In this document: in pieces, positions 3,824-30,773 of the stretch
How positions within the stretch are numbered: the stretch's first letter is position 1
Layout of the letters: every line of letters begins with the position of its first letter
Assembly: GCA_016840795.1 (NCBI GenBank)
Contig: JAEORS010000003.1
Coordinates: forward strand, 1 to 33,664
Reading direction: 5' to 3'
Length of the DNA stretch: 33,664 bases
Source of the DNA: Candidatus Thorarchaeota archaeon
GTDB taxonomy: Archaea > Asgardarchaeota > Thorarchaeia > Thorarchaeales > Thorarchaeaceae
Translations under genes and position numbers: made by a program
The notes under the pieces: model-generated
What the model was told of the DNA's origin: nothing
Database searches by the model: none
What the model saw: the letters and a program-made list of their open reading frames with translations, nothing else

Positions 3824-4267
3824 TCAGTCAGATAAGTCCTGTTTCTGAGCCAAACGACACTTGGAACAAAGTCCGTAGACCTCTAGACTCTGTCCCGTCA
3901 CTTGAAACTCAGTACTGTCCTCGATGGCAGTCGCGAGTGTGACCAGCCCCTCGAAGTGGAAGTCCTCAACATTACCACAATTGTTACAGACCAAGTTGAC
4001 GTGACTGTCAACTACAGGATCGTAGCGGGTGGAACCATCTCTGAATGCCATCTCCCTAGTGAGTCCCAAATCAGTGAACAGTCTGAGCGCCTTGTAGACA
4101 GTTGCTAGGCTTATAGTGGGGTCTCTGTCCGTTGCGGACTTGTGAATCTCGGCGACTGTCGGATGGTTGCCCGCGCTCCACACAGCATCGTATATTGCAA
4201 GTCTTTGCGGTGTCGCCCTATAGCCTCTTTTTCTGAGAACCTCAACTATTTCGGCCATCGAGTTCAT
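3824..4267 (-). CDS. Fur-family regulator, PerR-like
   Basis: GYRATPQRLAI, HPTVAEIH, ISLATVYKAL, RYD...SHVNLVCNNCGNVEDF, YGLCSKC. The track's N-terminal extension runs through the AT-rich promoter, so the start is set at ATG 4267 (or 4258). Confidence 0.92.
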   Translation of the reverse strand: MNSMAEIVEVLRKRGYRATPQRLAIYDAVWSAGNHPTVAEIHKSATDRDPTISLATVYKALRLFTDLGLTREMAFRDGSTRYDPVVDSHVNLVCNNCGNVEDFHFEGLVTLATAIEDSTEFQVTGQSLEVYGLCSKCRLAQKQDLSD

Positions 4268-4295
4268 CTCTTGGTGCCTAACAGGTTTCAGATTG

Positions 4296-4361
4296 TAATA
4301 AACGTTATCATTTACATTTTTATACTTATAGAACACAAAACTTAAGTAATAATCATTATCC
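4296..4361. promoter_or_regulatory. Two Fur/Per-box-like 7-1-7 inverted repeats in the divergent promoter (4296-4310 and 4347-4361)
   Basis: TAATAAA-C-GTTATCA (11/14) and TAATAAT-C-ATTATCC (12/14) versus TGATAAT-N-ATTATCA; the second overlaps a TATA-like AAAACTTAAGTA. Confidence 0.7.
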
Positions 4362-4393
4362 ACTAGACCATTCATTCCGAGGAGTCTAACCAA

Positions 4394-5041
4394 ATGGAAG
4401 TAAAAGAAGAGAGAAGAATGCTCCTGATCGGAGAGGAAGCACCAGACTTTGAGGCTGTGACAACAGACGGCGCAATCAAATTCAGCGAATGGGCTAAGGA
4501 CAGCTGGGTCATTCTATTCAGCCATCCCGCCGACTTCACGCCGGTCTGCACCACTGAGTTTATCGGTTTCACAGAGATATACCCGGAACTAGAGAAGCGC
4601 GGCGTAAAGCTGATGGGCCTTAGCATTGACAGCATCTATTCCCACATCTCTTGGATAAGCACGATAAAAGAGAAGTTCGGAGTGGAGATCCCCTTCCCCA
4701 TAATCGAGGACTTGAGCATGAGCGTTGCTGAGAAGTACGGCATGATTCACCCCGCTCAGAGCGGCACTGCCGCAGTAAGAGCCGTATTCTTCATCGATCC
4801 AGAGTTCAAGCTTAGAGCACTAATCTACTATCCCCTGAGCAATGGACGCAATATGGCCGAGATTCTACGTGTCATTGATGCGTTTCAGACCTCTGACAAG
4901 CACAAGGTCGCCACTCCAGCCAACTGGAATCCTGGTGACAAAGTGATAGTCCCACCTCCAAAGACCAAGGCAGACGCAGAGAAGCGCCTCAAGGAAGGCT
5001 ATGACTGCACTGATTGGTGGTTCTGTAAGAAGGAACTATAG
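4394..5041 (+). CDS. Peroxiredoxin (Prx6/archaeal type)
   Basis: FSHPADFTPVCTTE peroxidatic motif, GRNMAEILR, TPANW, C-terminal CTDWWFC; GAGGAG RBS. Confidence 0.96.
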   Translation: MEVKEERRMLLIGEEAPDFEAVTTDGAIKFSEWAKDSWVILFSHPADFTPVCTTEFIGFTEIYPELEKRGVKLMGLSIDSIYSHISWISTIKEKFGVEIPFPIIEDLSMSVAEKYGMIHPAQSGTAAVRAVFFIDPEFKLRALIYYPLSNGRNMAEILRVIDAFQTSDKHKVATPANWNPGDKVIVPPPKTKADAEKRLKEGYDCTDWWFCKKEL

Positions 5042-5050
5042 ATTACCTTT

Positions 5051-5070
5051 GCGGGGTTTCGATGCCCCGC
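5051..5070. terminator. GC-rich hairpin between convergent peroxiredoxin and nfi genes
   Basis: GCGGGG-tttcgatg-CCCCGC followed by pyrimidine-rich gttccctttctt. Confidence 0.5.
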
Positions 5071-5082
5071 GTTCCCTTTCTT

Positions 5083-5742
5083 CTACGACAGATTCTGTGT
5101 CGTTTCCTTTGAAATGCTATGGGCCCTTCGAAGAGGCTCCGGATATCCGTCAATCGATGCCTGCTCCACGACCGTCACTGCAGTATCTAGGCCGATTCTG
5201 TGTCCTATGGAAACATAGACCGGTTTCTTTCTCTTACTCAACCATAGAGCCATTCCGATACAATTGTGATCATCAAGAATCCTAGCCGCATTTCCCTGTC
5301 GCGGCTGCATCTCACCTAGGAGCAGTTTCTTCGCTACACCTATCGTCTGCAGGTCCAGATGGACACCTAGTTGTGACGCCAAACCGAGGCGTCTGGGATG
5401 CAGAATACCATTGCCATCGACAAGTACTGGTCCTGTTTCATCCAAGTCCCTGAGGAGCTCGACCAGTACAGGACCCTCACGGAGAAAGAAGTAGCCTGGA
5501 ATATACGGAGTGGTACACTCAACCGTTCTCTGTTCAGTCTGGATAGTTTCTCTGCTCTCCAGATCCATTACGACTGCACAACCTACTGCAACATTTCCTG
5601 TATAGGACACGTCGACCCCGGTCACAATAGAGCTGCTAAACGGTGGGATGTCTTCCGTGATCACTCGTTCTGCGAGTCGCATCTGTTCGACTCTCAACTG
5701 AGCTACCAGCTCATTCACTGTAGTCATCCCAGGATGCTCCAC
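5083..5742 (-). CDS. nfi: Endonuclease V (deoxyinosine 3'-endonuclease)
   Basis: GVDVSY, PYIPG wedge, FLREG, LVDGNGILHPRRLGLAS, TIGVAK, PVYVSIGH, PEPLRRAH. Confidence 0.95.
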   Translation of the reverse strand: MEHPGMTTVNELVAQLRVEQMRLAERVITEDIPPFSSSIVTGVDVSYTGNVAVGCAVVMDLESRETIQTEQRTVECTTPYIPGYFFLREGPVLVELLRDLDETGPVLVDGNGILHPRRLGLASQLGVHLDLQTIGVAKKLLLGEMQPRQGNAARILDDHNCIGMALWLSKRKKPVYVSIGHRIGLDTAVTVVEQASIDGYPEPLRRAHSISKETTQNLS

Positions 5743-5825: not shown

Positions 5826-6632
5826 ATGGTATTCAATCCTTTACCTGGTTTAGAGTGGGCTTGGGATATTGTCGCATTCATTATCTCGTTCATCTTGATT
5901 CTAATGCTAGTCCAGATTAATGCTGCAATCGAGAAGAGTGGCAAGCTATCGACGGTAGTGACAAGGAAGGTTATCCACACCTTCGCAGCCCCTGTATGGG
6001 CGGTGTCATGGTTGCTCTTCTCAGGAGGAGTGTTCAGTCGTTGGCTAGCGATGGTTGTTCCTCTTCTCTTCGTAATCCAGTTTATCGCAATCGGAACTGG
6101 GAAGATGCAGAATGAGAACTTCGTGCGATCCATGTCTAGAAGTGGGGATCCTAGAGAGCTTCTTGGAGGTACATTATACTATGCCTTCATGATGGTTGTT
6201 ATCGGGATTCTCTGGTTCTATGTCCCACCTGACGGCAACTTGGCTAACGCCACTCCGCTAGCAATGGTTGTCTTTGGATGTCTAGCTGGTGGTGACGGGT
6301 TCGCTGATGTCATAGGACGCAAGTATGGTGGTGACAGGAAGTTCGGGATTGGCGGCGCTGAGAAGACACTTGCAGGCGTTGTTGGAATGTTCATCGGATC
6401 ATTCCTGTTCAGCTTTGTCCTAGTGTTCCTATTCTCCATTGAGGTGGCAGCCTTTAGTGTAGTAGACCTGATTCTACCAATCGTAGTTGTGAGTCTTGTT
6501 GCCACGATTGTGGAGGCAATAACACCAAAGGGCCTTGATAATCTGACCATCTCCATTGCAGCGATTGTGATGGTGCTACTGCTACCTTATCTCGGACTCT
6601 TCTGGCCGTTTCCGATGTTCAGCCTGTTCTAG
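5826..6632 (+). CDS. CTP-dependent polyprenol kinase, farnesol/phytol kinase (FOLK/VTE5)-like membrane protein
   Basis: Multiple hydrophobic helices; RKVIH, VRSMSRSGDPRELLGGTLYY, GDGFADVIGRKYG, KTLAG, DNLTI motifs of the dolichol/phytol kinase family. Confidence 0.88.
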   Translation: MVFNPLPGLEWAWDIVAFIISFILILMLVQINAAIEKSGKLSTVVTRKVIHTFAAPVWAVSWLLFSGGVFSRWLAMVVPLLFVIQFIAIGTGKMQNENFVRSMSRSGDPRELLGGTLYYAFMMVVIGILWFYVPPDGNLANATPLAMVVFGCLAGGDGFADVIGRKYGGDRKFGIGGAEKTLAGVVGMFIGSFLFSFVLVFLFSIEVAAFSVVDLILPIVVVSLVATIVEAITPKGLDNLTISIAAIVMVLLLPYLGLFWPFPMFSLF

Positions 6633-6649
6633 ATGTCGTGGTGTGCTGA

Positions 6650-7468
6650 ATGGCCCAAGACCTGACAGTCATCAAGCTTGGCGGTTCACTACTGACTGAC
6701 AAGACTAGACCTTACACCTACAGGAAAGGCGTTCTGAAGTCGGTTGCCCGAGAGATTGGAGAGTGCCTTGATGAGGGTCTAATCCAGTCCTTGGTCTTGA
6801 TGCATGGTGTTGGTTCTTTTGGCCATCCACCAGTCCTTGAGCACAATCTACACAAGGGCTTCTTGGGACCTGAACAGCTCCTGCCTCTGTCAAGAACGCA
6901 GGAGAGTGTAGCTGAGCTCCGTCACATCATTGTGAAAGAACTCCAGAACGCTGGAATCCCTGTGTGCCTGATGTATCCATCGTCAATGGTGACCTCTGAG
7001 AAGATGAGGATGACCAACTACTTCCTAGAGCCATTGAAGGGCTTCACTTCAGTCGGGATGGTCCCTCTATTGGGGGGCGATATCCTAATTGACTCGGTTA
7101 TGGGCTGGAGTGTTGGCAGTGGAGATCAGTTGGCCGTCATCATCTGCAAAGAGCTGGATGCCAAGCGTCTGATTCTCGCGTCCGATGTCTCTGGAATCTA
7201 TGAGGACGACCCAAAGCTGAAGCCGGATGCTGCACCAATTGACGTCGTGAATCTGAGCAATCTCGAAGCGACTCTAGAGCGAATGGGCAAGTCGGGAATG
7301 GAGGACGCAAGTGGGGCAATGAAGGGCAAACTCCAGTCATTGATTCCTGCTAAGCCTCTGATTGAGAAGGGGCTGGAAGTCGGGCTTCTCTCAATGATGG
7401 AATATGGCAACCTAAAGTCGTTCCTAAGGGAGGAGCCGGTCCAAGCCACACGTGTTGTTGTGAAATAG
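6650..7468 (+). CDS. ipk: Isopentenyl phosphate kinase-like (amino-acid kinase family)
   Basis: IKLGGSLLTDK, HGVGSFGH (IPK signature His), SGDQL, ASDVSGIY, DASGAMKGK. Confidence 0.85.
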   Translation: MAQDLTVIKLGGSLLTDKTRPYTYRKGVLKSVAREIGECLDEGLIQSLVLMHGVGSFGHPPVLEHNLHKGFLGPEQLLPLSRTQESVAELRHIIVKELQNAGIPVCLMYPSSMVTSEKMRMTNYFLEPLKGFTSVGMVPLLGGDILIDSVMGWSVGSGDQLAVIICKELDAKRLILASDVSGIYEDDPKLKPDAAPIDVVNLSNLEATLERMGKSGMEDASGAMKGKLQSLIPAKPLIEKGLEVGLLSMMEYGNLKSFLREEPVQATRVVVK

Positions 7469-7484
7469 AGGAACTTCTGGGACT

Positions 7485-8714
7485 CTAAGTCCCAGAACCT
7501 CTCTTTTTCTCAATCTGACTTCGATATATGTCGAGTAGCTTCTTGGTGTGCTCTTTCAAGTCATAGTGCTTCTCCACGGTCTTCCTAGCATTGTTCCCAA
7601 GTTCCGATTGTAATTCCTCGTCTGACAGAAGGTTCCTAACGGCTTCAACTAGCGGGCTAACTTCACCCGGAGGGATAGCCAGGCCATCGTGACCGTGAGT
7701 GACAATCTCTCCTGGACCGTACACATTCGTGGTCACAACTGGGACCCCACATGCCATGGCCTCTATGATTGAAAGGCCAAAGGGCTCTCTCCTTGAAGGG
7801 TAGAGGAAGACTCTGCTCCTATTGATCAGGTCTGGTACTTTCTCGGTTTCCACCACTCCAAGATAGTCGACCATCTCCAACACACCCTTCTCTTCAAGAT
7901 CCTGGAGCAGCCTGTCCTTGTAGGATCCATCTCCCGTCATCAGCATCCTGAGGCCTGGAAGATGCTGCTTGAGTTGAAGAAGCATCTCGGGAAACAGGTC
8001 GACTGCTTTCATGGTTTCAAGTCTGCCAAGGAATGCAACATCCCACTGCTTGTGGATACCAGATTTGGGACTGAATACTGAGAGATTCACTGCATTCTGA
8101 AGCGTAGTCACCCTGTCCGTTAGATTCTCGGGAGACAAATGCTCTCGAAGGGCCTCTGCGACATTCTCGCTAACTGCAAGAACCAAGTCAAATGGCATAT
8201 GCGAAGCAAATTGTGCATAGTCAGTTGTCTTGGTCCCATTTGGTAGTATTAGTGGCTTGGGTAGGCCATGAATGGACACCACCATTGGTATGTCTGTCGT
8301 TTCCCCAGCCTGTTGTAGAGTTTCCAAAACGCGGTTGAACACCACGTAGCTGCTGTGCGCGTGTATCACTTCCGGCTTGACATCAAGAAGCAGTCTGGCA
8401 AGTTGCTCTACCAGCAACGATACATTCTGCTCCAAGTCATCTGGTGTGAACAGTTGCTCCGCAGCTACAGACCTTTCATCCTCAGACAGTGCGTAGAACT
8501 CCCACTTGCGTGCCTCCAACAGATTTCCGGGGAGATGAAAAAGTGTGTAGTGAGAACGAACAATCCTGTCTGAGAAATCACGTGCCGGTGCCTGAGTCAC
8601 TACGTACGGCTCATGACCTTCTGAAACGAGTTCCGCGGATAGGTAATGCAGTATCGCTTCGTACCCACCTAGACCGGCAGGGTTAAGGCTATCACAAAGG
8701 TGGAGAATCCTCAT
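7485..8714 (-). CDS. Glycosyltransferase family 4 (GT-B)
   Basis: MRILHL...GGYE, PEVIHAHS, FLGRLETMKA, YPSRREPFGLSIIEAMACGVPVV. Start set at ATG 8714. Confidence 0.93.
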   Translation of the reverse strand: MRILHLCDSLNPAGLGGYEAILHYLSAELVSEGHEPYVVTQAPARDFSDRIVRSHYTLFHLPGNLLEARKWEFYALSEDERSVAAEQLFTPDDLEQNVSLLVEQLARLLLDVKPEVIHAHSSYVVFNRVLETLQQAGETTDIPMVVSIHGLPKPLILPNGTKTTDYAQFASHMPFDLVLAVSENVAEALREHLSPENLTDRVTTLQNAVNLSVFSPKSGIHKQWDVAFLGRLETMKAVDLFPEMLLQLKQHLPGLRMLMTGDGSYKDRLLQDLEEKGVLEMVDYLGVVETEKVPDLINRSRVFLYPSRREPFGLSIIEAMACGVPVVTTNVYGPGEIVTHGHDGLAIPPGEVSPLVEAVRNLLSDEELQSELGNNARKTVEKHYDLKEHTKKLLDIYRSQIEKKRGSGT

Positions 8715-8773: not shown

Positions 8774-9862
8774 GTGAATCGACGAGATGTGAAACAACCT
8801 GCACTGATTAGTCTCCCAGACCGCGTCCGCGACCGTGACGTGTTTCACGACAAGGATGGAAGAGTCTATGTCACCCTCGGATACATCCAACCGGCGAGTC
8901 GAATTCTCTCTTTCTTCAAGTATGCACCTCATCCTGATGGTAAGTGGGTCTCAGGAGAACGGCGGTACGAACGTATCTTCTGGGGCGGAGGGGCCTCAGC
9001 ATCTGAAGGCATGACAAAGGCTCCTGACGACTACCTAGTATTCGATGATCATTTCGGTGTTGAGCTTCTTGAAGTGCCCAGAGATGATGTTGACAAATAC
9101 TTCAGTCCTGAAATCAGACTAAGGGAGATTCTTGAAGAGGGGGCCAAAGACCCATTGGAGAATAGCGTGGGTGAGATGGCTGAGACTCTACACGACACAC
9201 TGGGAATCCCACTTGAACGACTGGGTGTCACAGGCAGTATCGTTTGGAAGGCACACGACCCATCTTTCTCTGACATCAATATGAACATCTATGGCTTTGA
9301 AGACGCGTGGCACCTCCAGAATAGCTACGATGAGGTTGCAGAACAGAACTCACACATGCGCCTAAGGGAACTCCACGAATGGGAACGCACTATGTCCAGA
9401 GTCGTTGCCCGTATTCCTGTTCTTCCTGTTGAGGACATGAAGACGCTGTTCACAAGAAGGAAAGGACTCCTCTGTCGCGAACGGAGTATCGGTGTCATGC
9501 CTATTCTCCTCCCCGACGAGGCTCCAATCATGCACGGAAGTGAGTCATACACAACATTGACGCCCTCTCCTGTGCGTGTCAAAATGGAGGTCACCAGCGA
9601 GAAATACGGTCTGTTTCTCCCCGCAATCTATGAAGGCAGTTCCCGCCCGCTCGACATCTTAGGGGGGGACCAGGTTTCAAGGATATTGCTGTATGAGGGG
9701 TCATTCCGAGGACTCATACGAGAAGGAGACAAAGTAGAGGTGTCGGGTATCATTCAGAGAGTCACACCGACACGAAACATGGAAGAAATCTTCTACCAGC
9801 TGATGGTCGGCTCGAAGGTGGGGGCGGGCAAGGAGTTCATTCGCCTTGTCAGTAATACCTAG
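8774..9862 (+). CDS. Predicted Pol-beta-superfamily nucleotidyltransferase (archaeal COG1665-like), degenerate DxN motif
   Basis: RDRDVF...YVTLGYIQP N-terminus; LGVTGS...SDINMNIYG; C-terminal OB-like YEGSFRGLIREGDKVEVSGIIQRV; visibly paralogous to 9859-10938. Confidence 0.75.
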   Translation: MNRRDVKQPALISLPDRVRDRDVFHDKDGRVYVTLGYIQPASRILSFFKYAPHPDGKWVSGERRYERIFWGGGASASEGMTKAPDDYLVFDDHFGVELLEVPRDDVDKYFSPEIRLREILEEGAKDPLENSVGEMAETLHDTLGIPLERLGVTGSIVWKAHDPSFSDINMNIYGFEDAWHLQNSYDEVAEQNSHMRLRELHEWERTMSRVVARIPVLPVEDMKTLFTRRKGLLCRERSIGVMPILLPDEAPIMHGSESYTTLTPSPVRVKMEVTSEKYGLFLPAIYEGSSRPLDILGGDQVSRILLYEGSFRGLIREGDKVEVSGIIQRVTPTRNMEEIFYQLMVGSKVGAGKEFIRLVSNT

Positions 9863-10938
9863 TACTCGACGGCACCTATGGTCTTGAGAACATTGGCTTC
9901 CCAACCTGATACATAGCTTATCGCTATCTGCTCATATTCTGTGCTCTTTCGCTCTACTTTCTCAAGAACGCCAGAAACCAAGACCTCCTCATCTCTGAAG
10001 GCCATCATTCGAAATTGCTCTATGTAGTTGAGAACTCTGGTGGGTGATGCGCTTGGGTCGCCATCCAGCACTTCAAGCGTTTCGATTCCATACTCGCTTG
10101 GCATGTAGTAGCCGTCATCATGCTCAGTGATGCGGGCCCTGACAGTAATCCGGTCCCCCGGAGTCATTGTTGCATCCTCAGCCAGGTTGTCAATCTCGTC
10201 AAATCTACGAATAGGCTCGAACTCCACCTTGAGGAAGGGTTCTCGTACTCCTGGCAGGATACCGTAGATTCCCTTTCGACGATGGTGCGCAATTATCTCT
10301 TCACGAGTTATCGCCTTAAAGGGAGAAGGCTTCTCCAAGAACTGCTCCACTTCCACCACAAACTCGTTGGCCAGATACCCATCCGGTTCAGAATACCATT
10401 CAAGCAGAAGCGGCCGAAGCTCTTCGAACGTCTTTTTTCCGTAGACAGTGATATCCAGATCCGAGTATTGTGGATGGTAGATTCCTGCTAGCAGGCTACC
10501 GAATATACCCAGATCCGACCGCCTTAACGATGTGTTCTGTACGAGATAGTCAATCAGTTCAACCAAGAGTTCTGCAAGGAGGTCATCAGGCGGGGAAGCA
10601 AGCATCTCTTTCAGGCCCATGTCTGTCCTGAGCACCTCACTAATGTCAGGATGCCTTACTCCAACAAGAATAGTGTCAAGAGGAGGATACTGAACTGTGA
10701 ACTTTGGATACTTCTCATTCACGAACTCCACACCTTCGGGCCCATAGAACTTGCAGTAGCCCTTCTTACGTATTCGTCTATCCAGCAGAGTGTCAGACTT
10801 GAATATGGACATAGGCACGTATTCAGGGTCACACACGTATCCCTCTGGGGGATGCCAGTATCCGTAGACGCGGAAGAAGATTCCTGGTTCTGTCAGAATC
10901 AGATCACGGTCTCTGAGAGTAATAGCTTGTTCAGGCAT
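9859..10938 (-). CDS. Predicted Pol-beta-superfamily nucleotidyltransferase (archaeal COG1665-like), intact GS...DxD
   Basis: LRDRDLI...FRVYGYWHP; LGIFGSLL...SDLDITVYG; C-terminal YIEQFRMMAFRDEEVLVSGVLEKV. Start set at ATG 10938 (MPEQAITLRDRD). Confidence 0.8.
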   Translation of the reverse strand: MPEQAITLRDRDLILTEPGIFFRVYGYWHPPEGYVCDPEYVPMSIFKSDTLLDRRIRKKGYCKFYGPEGVEFVNEKYPKFTVQYPPLDTILVGVRHPDISEVLRTDMGLKEMLASPPDDLLAELLVELIDYLVQNTSLRRSDLGIFGSLLAGIYHPQYSDLDITVYGKKTFEELRPLLLEWYSEPDGYLANEFVVEVEQFLEKPSPFKAITREEIIAHHRRKGIYGILPGVREPFLKVEFEPIRRFDEIDNLAEDATMTPGDRITVRARITEHDDGYYMPSEYGIETLEVLDGDPSASPTRVLNYIEQFRMMAFRDEEVLVSGVLEKVERKSTEYEQIAISYVSGWEANVLKTIGAVEY

Positions 10939-10967
10939 TGTCACATCCTGTCCCTTAAGATACGCGA

Positions 10968-12098
10968 ATGACGCCGAGTGATAATCTTTCCTTTCGACAA
11001 CCAGACTCATTAGGAGAAGCCGCCCTAAGGGTACCTGTGTCGTCCGGAAGGTCATATGTCAAGACAAAGGCCGGCGATGGCGAAACGGCCAGAAAGGCCC
11101 TCTTGGAGGCCAAACTCCTAGACACAGAATACAAGATAGTAGACGAATACCAAGACCTGTACTTCCCATTATCAGGCAAGGTTTCCAAGGCCGAATTGAA
11201 GAAGATTCTGGCTGGCATAGACTTCGAAACCGGCAAGAGAGAGTTTGTAACGGCACATATCGGACCGAAGACGTTGTCTGATGCTCTTGAGGGCATACTA
11301 CCCCCAGAACTGTTCGAACACCTACCACGTGCCTATGACCTCATTGGAGATATCGCTGTTCTTGAACTACCTGATGAGTTAGCTGACTTTGGTAGGGAGA
11401 TAGGTTCAGCTTTTCAATCCATGCACAAGAACTTCTCAACGGTTCTTGGCAAGCGAGGTGCCATAACCGGAACAACAAGAGTCCGTCGGTATGACCTACT
11501 TGCTGGTCAGAGAAAGACAAGAACCATTCACACAGAATATGGCTGCAAGATTGCAGTAGATGTTGCAAAGGCCTACTTCAGTCCAAGGCTGCTTGAGGAG
11601 CATAACAGGGTTGCAAATCTGGTTGTGGATGGCGAAACCGTGGTAGACATGTTCACTGGAGTCGGCCCCTTCGCGCTACACATTGCCAGAAGACATAGTG
11701 CTAGGGTCTATGCTATCGACATCAACGCTGATGCAATTGATCTACTTAGAGAGAGCATCGAGCTCAATCGACTGATAGGTGAGGTCATACCTATACTGGG
11801 AGATGCACATGATTACGTTCAGAGCAGTTTTGATGCAGATGTTGATCGGGTGATAATGAACCATCCAACTGGTGCCTTCGAGTTTGTAAGGGATGCATGC
11901 AAAGCTCTGAGGGAAGACGGATTCATGCATTACTACGATTTTGCAGGTGGAAAAGATCCTGAAAGTAGCGTTCAGGAGAAGATAGAGGGCCTTGTGAGAG
12001 AGTCGGGCAGAGAAGTACAGAGTGTTGATGTGATACGAAGAGTCCGGGATAGTGCCCCCTACGAGTACCAAATGGTTGTCGATTTGGTCATTCGCTGA
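10968..12098 (+). CDS. trm5: tRNA (guanine37-N1)-methyltransferase, Trm5/Met10 family
   Basis: AYDLIGDIAV, HTEYGC, AYFSPRL, VVDMFTGVGPFAL, DRVIMNHP. True start probably later (GTG 11037). Confidence 0.88.
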   Translation: MTPSDNLSFRQPDSLGEAALRVPVSSGRSYVKTKAGDGETARKALLEAKLLDTEYKIVDEYQDLYFPLSGKVSKAELKKILAGIDFETGKREFVTAHIGPKTLSDALEGILPPELFEHLPRAYDLIGDIAVLELPDELADFGREIGSAFQSMHKNFSTVLGKRGAITGTTRVRRYDLLAGQRKTRTIHTEYGCKIAVDVAKAYFSPRLLEEHNRVANLVVDGETVVDMFTGVGPFALHIARRHSARVYAIDINADAIDLLRESIELNRLIGEVIPILGDAHDYVQSSFDADVDRVIMNHPTGAFEFVRDACKALREDGFMHYYDFAGGKDPESSVQEKIEGLVRESGREVQSVDVIRRVRDSAPYEYQMVVDLVIR

Positions 12099-29465: not shown

Positions 29466-30773
29466 CTAATAATCGAAGTATTCACTCAGGTCGATTTCTG
29501 GGAATTCAACACGCTCAAAGTTCTTGCCCTTGGCTACCGTTGGCTTTGTCGCATCAAAGCCAATCTTTGTAGTCAGCTTTGTGCCCGGCTCTGCGCTTGG
29601 ATCGAGAGAGCTCCCTGGCTCCCTATCCTTCACTAGCATCCCCAAGTGTCCCTGGAATCTGGTAGCCATTGCCCATTCGCGGCTCTGTTCGTCGTACAAG
29701 TCAATATCCTCATCATAGATCCATACATGCTTTGCACTTCGATGCCCCTCAAAAGCACCTTCGATTGCTCTCATTCCATCATCGTCACTCTTCTTCCTAA
29801 TCTTCACTACGACGTGCAACCAGCTTGTGCCCCCTGGAGTAATGTGTACATCGAGCACCTCTACCCCTCTTTCTGCAATCTTCCTGAACACGGTAGGTTC
29901 TCGTGGCATTCCCATCAGAATCTTGTGTTCCAACCTGCCTGGAAGAAGCGCCTGCCAGATGGCGTTCTTCCTGTGTGTGATCTTCCTGACCTCGAAGACA
30001 GGCTCCTGTCTTACTATGTCTGCGGTCTCGGTTGTGTCTACAAACGGGCCCTCATCGACCCTCTCCTCCCAGAATACTCTCCCCTCCAACACGAATTCGC
30101 AGTCCGCTGGTATCATCAGATCGACCGTCTTGGCCCTTGCTACGTTGATTGGCCCCAAGGCATTGGCAATCTCAAGTTCATCTACTCCAATCTCGACAGA
30201 AGTAGCAGCAGCAATCAGAACCTCCGGCGTGTTTCCAATACAGTAGGCGACATCTACCTCACCGTTTCGCTCCAGGAACTTATGGAAATGACGACCGCGT
30301 ACAACTCTGGTGACCATCCGGTCTTTGTCAATCTGCATTGCTCGATGAAAGTCGAGATTCTGTCCAAACTCCGGATCTGATGAAACAACCACACTTGAGG
30401 AGATATACGGCCCTCGTTCAATCCTGTTGTGAACCAGGATTGGCAGCTTATCCAGGTCCACTTTCTTTTCCACTATTTCTTGACAGGAAGCCCTCTTCGT
30501 TTTCTCTGGTGAGCTCCGATTCTCTATTGCATTTGCCAAGGTTGGAATGATGTCCTTGACCCCTATTCCGAAATACTCTGCAATCTGCTCTTTAGTGCAG
30601 AATAGGTTCCCCACGACCTTAGTATCACACTCCTTCACGTCTGTGAAGAACACTGGCTTCGGTTCCATGGCCTTCAATACACCAGCTATCTCAAGGTTCT
30701 TCGAGACGGCTTTTCGAATCGTTGTGAGCTTACCCTGTTCGTCTAATTTCCTCACGTAATCGTCAAGTATCAT
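29466..30773 (-). CDS. UbiD-family prFMN decarboxylase, probably anhydromevalonate phosphate decarboxylase
   Basis: VDLDKLP, GPYISS, NLDFHR, EFVLEG, EGPFVD, EHKILMGMPREP, GGTSWLH, WAMATRFQ, GSSLDPS, KIGFDATKP. Confidence 0.9.
   Translation of the reverse strand: MILDDYVRKLDEQGKLTTIRKAVSKNLEIAGVLKAMEPKPVFFTDVKECDTKVVGNLFCTKEQIAEYFGIGVKDIIPTLANAIENRSSPEKTKRASCQEIVEKKVDLDKLPILVHNRIERGPYISSSVVVSSDPEFGQNLDFHRAMQIDKDRMVTRVVRGRHFHKFLERNGEVDVAYCIGNTPEVLIAAATSVEIGVDELEIANALGPINVARAKTVDLMIPADCEFVLEGRVFWEERVDEGPFVDTTETADIVRQEPVFEVRKITHRKNAIWQALLPGRLEHKILMGMPREPTVFRKIAERGVEVLDVHITPGGTSWLHVVVKIRKKSDDDGMRAIEGAFEGHRSAKHVWIYDEDIDLYDEQSREWAMATRFQGHLGMLVKDREPGSSLDPSAEPGTKLTTKIGFDATKPTVAKGKNFERVEFPEIDLSEYFDY

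Follow-up and report, generated by a model that had tools for sequence, protein, structure and literature searches.

The stretch of DNA analysed here (hereafter the window) comprises 33,664 nucleotides of contig JAEORS010000003.1 from a Candidatus Thorarchaeota genome (GenBank assembly GCA_016840795.1; 84.6% complete). It carries two intact open reading frames (ORFs) on the same strand, which encode a membrane protein resembling prenol kinases (P0001) and a paralogue of isopentenyl phosphate kinase (IPK; P0002), respectively (Table 1). The original prediction proposed that these two co-oriented genes lie 17 bp apart and act in succession in prenol salvage. The spacing is confirmed, and the spacer holds a GGTGTG stretch that is possibly a ribosome-binding site. 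The motifs on which the prediction drew, viz., VRSMSRSGDPRELLGGTLYY and GDGFADVIGRKYG in P0001 and HGVGSFGH and DASGAM in P0002, are likewise all found. With an endonuclease V gene in divergent orientation on one side and a glycosyltransferase gene converging on it from the other, the pair forms a self-contained two-gene unit.

Table 1. Features of the gene pair and its immediate surroundings, with positions in the window
Feature	Position	Strand	Remarks
Membrane prenol-kinase-like gene P0001 (FOLK/VTE5/PolK type, CTP-transferase superfamily)	5826..6632	+	268 aa, ~7 hydrophobic segments
RKVIH in P0001	5964..5978	+	R47, K48 and H51 invariant in 22/22 alignment rows
VRSMSRSGDPRELLGGTLYY loop, P0001 residues 100-119	6123..6182	+	From alignment
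GDGFADVIGRKYG, P0001 residues 156-168, beginning of conserved C-terminal motif	6291..6329	+	From alignment
17-bp spacer with GGTGTG	6633..6649	+	Between P0001 and P0002
IPK-B gene P0002 (IPK paralogue, amino-acid-kinase fold)	6650..7468	+	272 aa
HGVGSFGH, P0002 residues 52-59, including IPK signature His59	6803..6826	+	His59 in 35/35 IPK-B rows
DASGAM (in place of DVTGGM), P0002 residues 219-224	7304..7321	+	Model confidence low at residues 215-222
Inverted repeat followed by pyrimidine/T run, terminator-like	7475..7507	+	Directly after the IPK stop codon

Searches of Pfam and NCBIfam with P0001 gave no meaningful family, and a PDB sequence search returned chance antibody matches only. The predicted model of P0001 is all-helical, with a predicted local distance difference test score (pLDDT) of 85.9; Foldseek found no match to it at E 0.001, the best fold match being a weak one to CdsA (E 0.028). 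A profile search of 1.84 billion representatives matched many longer proteins with N-terminal extensions, and ten of these, when looked up, comprise two entries named as plant phytol kinases, one streptophyte algal protein, two entries with metagenome labels and five nameless ones. The nearest relative of P0001 is a 97% identical kinase from Candidatus Thorarchaeota. With the Selaginella protein annotated as 'probable phytol kinase 2' (XP_002971473.2), P0001 shares 35% identity over 252 residues (E 2e-37), as against 27% over 169 residues (E 6e-6) for a second, divergent kinase of the same superfamily in the source genome (C17:111-920, locus L007; hereafter the C17 paralogue). In a tree of 73 kinase rows, which omits 16 rows of an earlier tree (a single long branch and otherwise near-duplicates or tandem paralogues), P0001 falls on a branch supported at 100/100 together with plant, algal-like, cyanobacterial and Anaerolineae proteins, and the C17 paralogue stands apart. 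Inside this branch the subclade of P0001 is distinct from the plant-cyanobacterial one. We also note that the 20 plant and eukaryote-like kinases of this tree cluster with homologues from cyanobacteria and Anaerolineae and not with the Asgard subclades that are linked to IPK.

The VRSMSRSGDPRELLGGTLYY loop recurs in similar form in the plant, algal-like, cyanobacterial and Anaerolineae homologues and has no match in the C17 paralogue. The GDGxA pattern is present in 131 of 150 representatives, and the motifs RKxxH and GDGxADxxG are invariant across 22 aligned kinase rows. The conserved motif that starts at GDGFADVIGRKYG is one that we take, from the family, to bind the nucleotide. Residues R47, K48 and H51 match the Arg-Lys-x-x-His phosphate clamp modelled for the Plasmodium polyprenol kinase PolK (PMC10849223). 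The resemblance to plant FOLK and VTE5 noted in the original prediction is thus borne out by the 35% identity and by the tree, the reference proteins being annotated rather than characterised enzymes, and an assignment of P0001 as a FOLK/VTE5-type kinase is supported at the level of sequence.

P0002 passes the archaeal IPK model IPPK_Arch (NF040647) with 157 bits against a cut-off of 120, and its predicted structure (pLDDT 90.9) is best matched by PDB entry 7lnt with a template modelling (TM) score of 0.86 (E 1.5e-26). Among the fold matches listed, all are IPKs down to rank 29, with FomA appearing at rank 34. Residues K9, H59, D144, D159, D219 and K227 are present in 35 of 35 IPK-B rows (defined below), and the catalytic His is the signature of IPKs (PMC3857490). 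A careful tree built from 62 IPKs places all those that adjoin a kinase in a single clade of 35 rows (support 100/97), which we term IPK-B. Outside it lie the canonical IPKs of Thorarchaeales, other Asgard families, Bathyarchaeota, Thermoplasmata and Anaerolineae. This tree, composed entirely of uncharacterised enzymes, replaced a quick earlier one that lacked the other archaeal canonical IPKs. The clade spans Asgard, one Bathyarchaeota, Thermoplasmatota and Chloroflexota genomes. In P0002 the canonical DVTGG(M) loop is missing; Ala is found at position 220 in 24 and Ser at position 221 in 28 of the 35 IPK-B rows, whereas other IPKs have Val (24/25) and Thr (25/25) at these positions. The members of the clade differ among themselves in this loop (DASGAM, DVSGxM, DVTKGM and DITKGM), and of the two sequence marks originally claimed for the gene, HGxGSFGH and DASGAM, both are present in P0002 but the latter does not define the clade. 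By cut-off, predicted fold and signature His, P0002 is an IPK, yet one of a distinct subfamily, and the claim that it represents a divergent, non-housekeeping second IPK agrees with its separate clade and its 29% identity to the canonical copy of the same genome.

Among the 87 genomes of the taxonomic order to which the window belongs (Thorarchaeia-type), there are 65 close matches to the kinase (E < 1e-40, two half-matches in genome G024 being merged) as against 142 IPK matches, and an IPK lies directly downstream of 61 of these 65. The four exceptions are two contig-end fragments, an insertion in G079 and a shortened IPK in G058. The insertion in G079 (L082) measures 3.3 kb and places several ORFs between kinase and IPK-B, and in G058 the IPK-B is reduced to its first 44 residues (L083:5464-5595). 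Of the distant matches to the kinase family, on the other hand, only one in 76 has an IPK within 10 kb, and this is a fragment on a short contig that also holds a true pair. Thus, the linkage is far above chance. Counted by genome, both genes are present in 62, neither in 22, the kinase only in two and IPK-B only in one, with a partial, unclassified IPK in G017 counted as not belonging to IPK-B. As 13 of the 22 genomes having neither gene are at least 90% complete, the unit is accessory and is lost jointly. An additional IPK unlinked to the pair is found in 54 of the 61 pair-bearing genomes. These counts establish the conservation of the pair on which the original prediction depended.

Across 80 GTDB loci, an IPK is present in the locus for 27 of the 30 closest kinases and for none of the 50 more distant ones; the IPK-positive loci include Promethearchaeota, Hermodarchaeota, Bathyarchaeota, Thermoplasmata and three Chloroflexota. 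Beyond the order, a kinase lies within 1 kb of 25 of 30 strong IPK-B matches (a count that used 29 kinase rows), and of three out of three in Thermoplasmatota. The two genes remain adjacent even where their arrangement changes, the gene order being reversed in six loci (L179, L192, L193, L195, L196 and L217) and the pair being divergent in two (L205 and L248). The patristic distances of the two genes are correlated over 29 pairs with a Spearman coefficient of 0.75, a value reached in none of 2000 permutations, though it is inflated by shared ancestry, related pairs being non-independent. The non-Asgard pairs are nested among Asgard sequences in both gene trees, which suggests that the two genes were transferred jointly. 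The unit is rare outside Asgard archaea, IPK-B being present in two of 201 genomes in the class of G337 and, among 301 genomes each, in one from the phylum of G542 and three from that of G543 (the seed genomes are counted throughout).

The source genome encodes mvk (C252:11488), AcnX (C252:13740) and a fragment of IDI2 at the edge of contig C125. A canonical IPK with the DVTGGM motif, which the original prediction had recommended looking for, is present at C55:13185-13988 (197 bits against NF040647), so that P0002 is not the sole IPK; it was expected near mvk or idi, but adjoins a glmS-like gene instead of these or AcnX. The predicted isolation of the pair from mevalonate-pathway genes holds for mvk, AcnX, the IDI2 fragment and the canonical IPK, but not for a UbiD-family decarboxylase gene (window 29466-30773, minus strand; TIGR00148, 329 bits, above cut-off). 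This gene lies about 22 kb from the pair, apart from mvk and AcnX on C252, and probably encodes the anhydromevalonate phosphate decarboxylase (AMPD) of the archaeal pathway. Because a search of the source genome, at the completeness given above, found neither diphosphomevalonate nor phosphomevalonate decarboxylase (DMD/PMD), de novo isoprenoid synthesis probably proceeds via the archaeal anhydromevalonate route, which requires IPK. Two further genes bear on the pair. The first encodes the C17 paralogue, a candidate housekeeping dolichol-type kinase, weaker matches of whose type occur without IPK linkage in most genomes of the order. The second is a DUF92/VTE6-like gene (C176:4794-5573) unlinked to the pair, counterparts of which are found in 77 of the 87 genomes whether or not the pair is present. 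That DUF92 and IPK-B might substitute for one another was discarded on the latter count; in addition, no DUF92 was recognised among the recurring neighbor clusters of unlinked Anaerolineae kinases, which were read by eye.

Based on these gene families, their linkage and the shared presence of the two genes, we hypothesize that the pair re-activates free prenols in two steps, a function that we regard as probable when no chain length is specified. The membrane kinase would phosphorylate a free allylic prenol, with CTP as the donor to judge from its family, and IPK-B would add the second phosphate to the prenyl monophosphate, presumably from ATP. The resulting prenyl diphosphate would then rejoin chain elongation toward geranylgeranyl diphosphate (GGPP) and ether lipids; de novo synthesis would be served by the canonical IPK. 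The originally proposed module leading from alcohol to monophosphate to diphosphate is accordingly kept as the best reading of the locus, its enzymatic steps, both phosphate donors, substrate range and physiological use being what we infer. A working parallel is available from engineering, as Arabidopsis farnesol kinase (AtFKI) and AtIPK expressed in yeast convert prenol, isoprenol and C6-C7 analogues to diphosphates (PMC11873216). These belong to the same two enzyme families and act in the same order as the pair; however, that pathway is a laboratory construct combining plant genes that are not linked, whereas the genes described here are naturally adjacent, are inherited together and include an IPK from a clade of its own.

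As regards chain length, the residues that govern it in T. acidophilum IPK are Y70, V73, V130 and I140, natural IPKs accept chains of at least ten atoms poorly or not at all, and engineered IPKs take geranyl phosphate (GP) and farnesyl phosphate (FP) (PMC8500459). We mapped these four positions (R1-R4) through PDB alignments anchored on the I74A and I146A mutant entries; R1 and R3 were assigned from their spacing and because the result agrees with what PMC8500459 states in its text. In P0002 they correspond to L80, T83, I145 and V155, with a side-chain volume sum, taken as a sequence proxy, of about 590 cubic angstroms; the sums are 586 for M. thermautotrophicus, 589 for T. paralvinellae, 562 for M. 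alvus and 640 for T. acidophilum IPK. The mean is 575 in IPK-B as against 608 in other IPKs, and this slightly smaller clade mean fits a modest widening of the pocket. R4 is Val in 32 of 35 IPK-B rows as against Ile in 24 of 25 others, and R2 is Ala in nine of 35. Other residues are fixed or nearly so in IPK-B, viz., V54 (33/35), V62 (35/35), V87 (34/35), R91 (33/35) and V155 (32/35), position 62 being Ala or Gly in 25 of 25 other IPKs. In a set of 45 rows, almost all of them IPK-B from Thorarchaeales, position 156 is Gly in 41, and it is Leu in 31 of 31 canonical rows, whereas over the 35 rows of the whole clade it is Cys in 13, Gly in eight, Leu in five and Tyr in four. These substitutions indicate a pocket that has been reshaped and is not clearly enlarged. 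Neither DASGAM nor T83 could be retained as a mark of long-chain specificity, the former not being clade-wide and Thr at R2 being common in other IPKs (M. thermautotrophicus, T. paralvinellae and 14 of 25 other IPKs).

On account of this C5-like pocket, the unlinked DUF92 gene in 77 of 87 genomes, and the detection of IPK-B as the only IPK in the AcnX-positive Chloroflexota genomes G337 and G338, we tentatively favor short-to-medium allylic isoprenoid alcohols (C5 to about C10) as the substrates re-activated by the pair, a narrower proposal to which we would give somewhat under an even chance. The supposition that the bacterial carriers use the methylerythritol phosphate (MEP) route and keep IPK-B purely for salvage was dropped, as Dxr is found in none of five and AcnX in all five. 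Several observations weigh against short-to-medium chains, or against the two-step reading as a whole. The volume sum is a crude proxy for pocket size. Were isopentenyl phosphate (IP) or dimethylallyl phosphate (DMAP) the only product, its second phosphorylation should be within reach of the canonical IPK, and therefore the 54 genomes that keep IPK-B beside it point to a substrate that the canonical enzyme handles poorly. Those relatives of the membrane kinase that have been characterised use C15-C20 alcohols as substrates (PMC13022625, PMC10849223). The sole-IPK cases G337 and G338 are weak, no completeness being given for either genome. In addition, 20 of 40 non-Thorarchaeales kinase loci show no IPK in the stretch examined, and IPK-B occurs without an adjacent kinase in G340, G341 and G446. 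Finally, in genomes of family f22 a metallo-beta-lactamase-fold domain and a divergent IPK-like domain are encoded as one fusion (L249:1903-3597, L250:2017-3738), which forms open frames of 563-602 residues in 11 of 13 f22 genomes and is the only IPK-like gene found in the single-contig genome G276 of this family. The fusion may be the housekeeping IPK copy there, and the use of f22 genomes as proof of a housekeeping C5 role for IPK-B is weakened by it.

The strongest competitor holds that the pair salvages long chains, with the kinase acting on farnesol, geranylgeraniol or phytol and IPK-B forming farnesyl diphosphate (FPP), GGPP or phytyl diphosphate for ether lipids. We consider this doubtful but keep it in serious view, because a C5-only IPK-B would be redundant, the relatives of the first enzyme prefer C15-C20 substrates, and archaea are reported to use geranylgeraniol. 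The same guarded standing applies to its corollary, that IPK-B might be a natural soluble, ATP-dependent long-chain prenyl phosphate kinase unrelated to VTE6 and carried in a mobile two-gene cassette. The co-occurrence of IPK-B with a canonical IPK in 54 of 61 genomes, which argues for non-redundancy, speaks for long chains, as do the clade-fixed changes at or near the pocket (V62, V87, R91 and V155, along with G156 in the nearly all-Thorarchaeales rows) and the acceptance of GP and FP by engineered IPKs (PMC8500459). Archaea with geranylgeraniol kinase (GGK) and geranylgeranyl phosphate kinase (GGPK) activities and with incorporation of geranylgeraniol have also been described, and geranylgeranylglyceryl phosphate synthase (GGGPS) accepts phytyl diphosphate (PMC9385802). 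However, R1-R4 are not enlarged as in the Ala mutants, G156 is not clade-wide (8/35), and a DUF92/VTE6-like candidate for the same step is present in 77 of 87 genomes, the source genome included. The proposal in the original prediction that the IPK acts as a farnesyl, geranylgeranyl or phytyl phosphate kinase so far finds no support in the R1-R4 volume, which equals that of characterised C5 IPKs, and is burdened further by the DUF92 distribution and by the sole-IPK genomes.

S. acidocaldarius reportedly possesses both GGK and GGPK activities, that is, a two-step phosphorylation of a prenol in an archaeon. This activity differs from the present pair in that the organism has no IPK (PMC3857490), and its second enzyme therefore cannot be IPK-B, a point that also counts against long chains. 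In agreement, our profile search of the S. acidocaldarius control genome found no IPK above the cut-off and no DUF92 at E 1e-10; since neither was found, its GGPK may be an enzyme of a third type.

It is improbable that the pair is an isoprenoid-recycling operon without direct hand-off, in which DUF92 would finish the products of the membrane kinase (or the monophosphates would be used as such) and IPK-B would separately recover IP and DMAP. Such an arrangement would accommodate the DUF92 gene in 77 of 87 genomes, the C5-like pocket and the natural C15-C20 substrates of the kinase family (PMC13022625), but DUF92 occurs regardless of the pair and unlinked to it, and consecutive steps are a simpler account of the tight linkage and co-transfer of exactly two genes. 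Still less probable is that P0001 phosphorylates a lipid, be it dolichol, archaeol or an alcohol of the diacylglycerol type, with the link to IPK reflecting co-regulation only. The automatic source names of the kinases, which are divided among dolichol kinase, phytol kinase, diacylglycerol/polyprenol kinase and phosphatidate cytidylyltransferase, leave room for it. However, the branch that P0001 shares with phytol-kinase-like proteins of plant, cyanobacterial and algal-like type (100/100) does not include the C17 paralogue, and the latter, with its weaker matches in most genomes of the order, would itself be the candidate housekeeping dolichol kinase. The pair is also dispensable, neither gene being present in 22 of 87 genomes, and the phosphates of dolichol, archaeol and diacylglycerol-type alcohols need no second phosphate. 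Archaeal UbiX uses DMAP, and AcnX and a UbiD-family decarboxylase are present in the source genome; even so, it is highly improbable that the pair balances a DMAP pool for prenylated flavin mononucleotide (FMN), which AMPD and other UbiD-type decarboxylases use as their cofactor, instead of serving lipid synthesis, as no ubiX- or ubiD-like cluster was recognised among the recurring neighbors of the 80 kinase loci (clusters read by eye, some of them scanned) and family f24 has the pair although AcnX was not found in its six genomes.

The two-step re-activation proposed here has its closest natural counterpart in the plant and cyanobacterial salvage by VTE5 (phytol kinase) or FOLK (farnesol kinase) followed by VTE6 (phytyl phosphate kinase). 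P0001 resembles the first enzyme of that route in identity (35%), tree branch and the RKxxH and GDGxAD motifs, and the putative logic, from alcohol through monophosphate to diphosphate, is the same. In contrast, the second step in plants is catalysed by a membrane protein of the DUF92 family (PF01940), whereas the candidate here is a soluble IPK of the amino-acid-kinase fold with the DUF92 gene unlinked; moreover, the genes form an operon-like pair, carried by Asgard archaea, other archaea of sediment type and a small number of Chloroflexota. Plasmodium PolK shares the kinase family and the Arg-Lys-x-x-His clamp of P0001 and makes monophosphates only, so that a second kinase is needed (PMC10849223). 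A candidate for the second kinase adjoins P0001, whereas no gene is reported for that step in Plasmodium. As compared with the IPKs of the archaeal mevalonate pathway (PDB identifiers 3ll9, 7lnt, 8u0k, 3k4o and 3lkk), P0002 passes the same model and has the same predicted fold (TM 0.78-0.86), but IPK-B differs in forming a separate clade, in being accessory, in having DVTGG mostly replaced, and in being tied to a prenol kinase and not to mevalonate genes.

Biochemical evidence of prenol salvage in archaea, animals and parasites goes back decades. According to two papers from 2026 and 2024, the genes identified for it are VTE5, FOLK, VTE6 and PfPolK only, VTE6 being the sole second-step kinase named (PMC13022625, PMC10849223). 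A full-text literature search, whose coverage leaves out most subscription journals, returned no description of the pair or of the IPK-B subfamily. The pair is real and well conserved and probably represents a new form of prenol salvage, and it offers a soluble, easily expressed candidate for the second step along with an archaeal candidate for the first. If its substrates are short, it would be a natural counterpart of the engineered isopentenol utilisation pathway and an enzyme pair ready for terpenoid engineering. If they are long, it would provide a new answer to the prenyl phosphate kinase step. Asgard archaea and sediment bacteria would then be able to use scavenged phytol or geranylgeraniol directly for their membrane lipids, and the entry of environmental isoprenoids into Asgard lipids would bear on the reading of lipid biomarkers.

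Some further features of the loci may be noted. The terminator-like site behind the IPK gene overlaps the end of the convergent glycosyltransferase gene, and such sites are no commoner in the region than in shuffled sequences (two as against a mean of 1.8). A LinD-like gene (PF18566) and an ECF S-component gene occur near the pair in relatives (L088:1012-2628 and L087:2603-3223), and of the 36 genomes that hold both the former and the pair, 19 have it no more than 5 kb upstream; a LinD-like gene was not found in the source genome with the query used. A four-gene pathway including the LinD-like gene was rejected, as its co-occurrence with the pair is not enriched (36/28/10/13, Fisher p 0.34). 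The canonical IPK is fused to an FMN-dependent (IDI2-like) domain in some genomes of family f9 and bears an unassigned N-terminal extension of about 175 residues in family f12 (examples of the f9/f12 variants are L251:1358-3271 and L252:1370-2728), and tandem duplicates of the prenol-kinase gene are seen in L186, L187 and L188, also of family f12. Downstream of the pair, the window contains two convergent ORFs of like character (8774-9862, plus strand, and 9859-11055, minus strand), one of them with a weak nucleotidyltransferase match, and an ORF resembling these, by eye, is found near the canonical IPK (L006:4244-5440). Upstream lie genes for a Fur-family regulator, a 1-Cys peroxiredoxin and the endonuclease V (window 3824-5742), which stand beside the pair again in some relatives.

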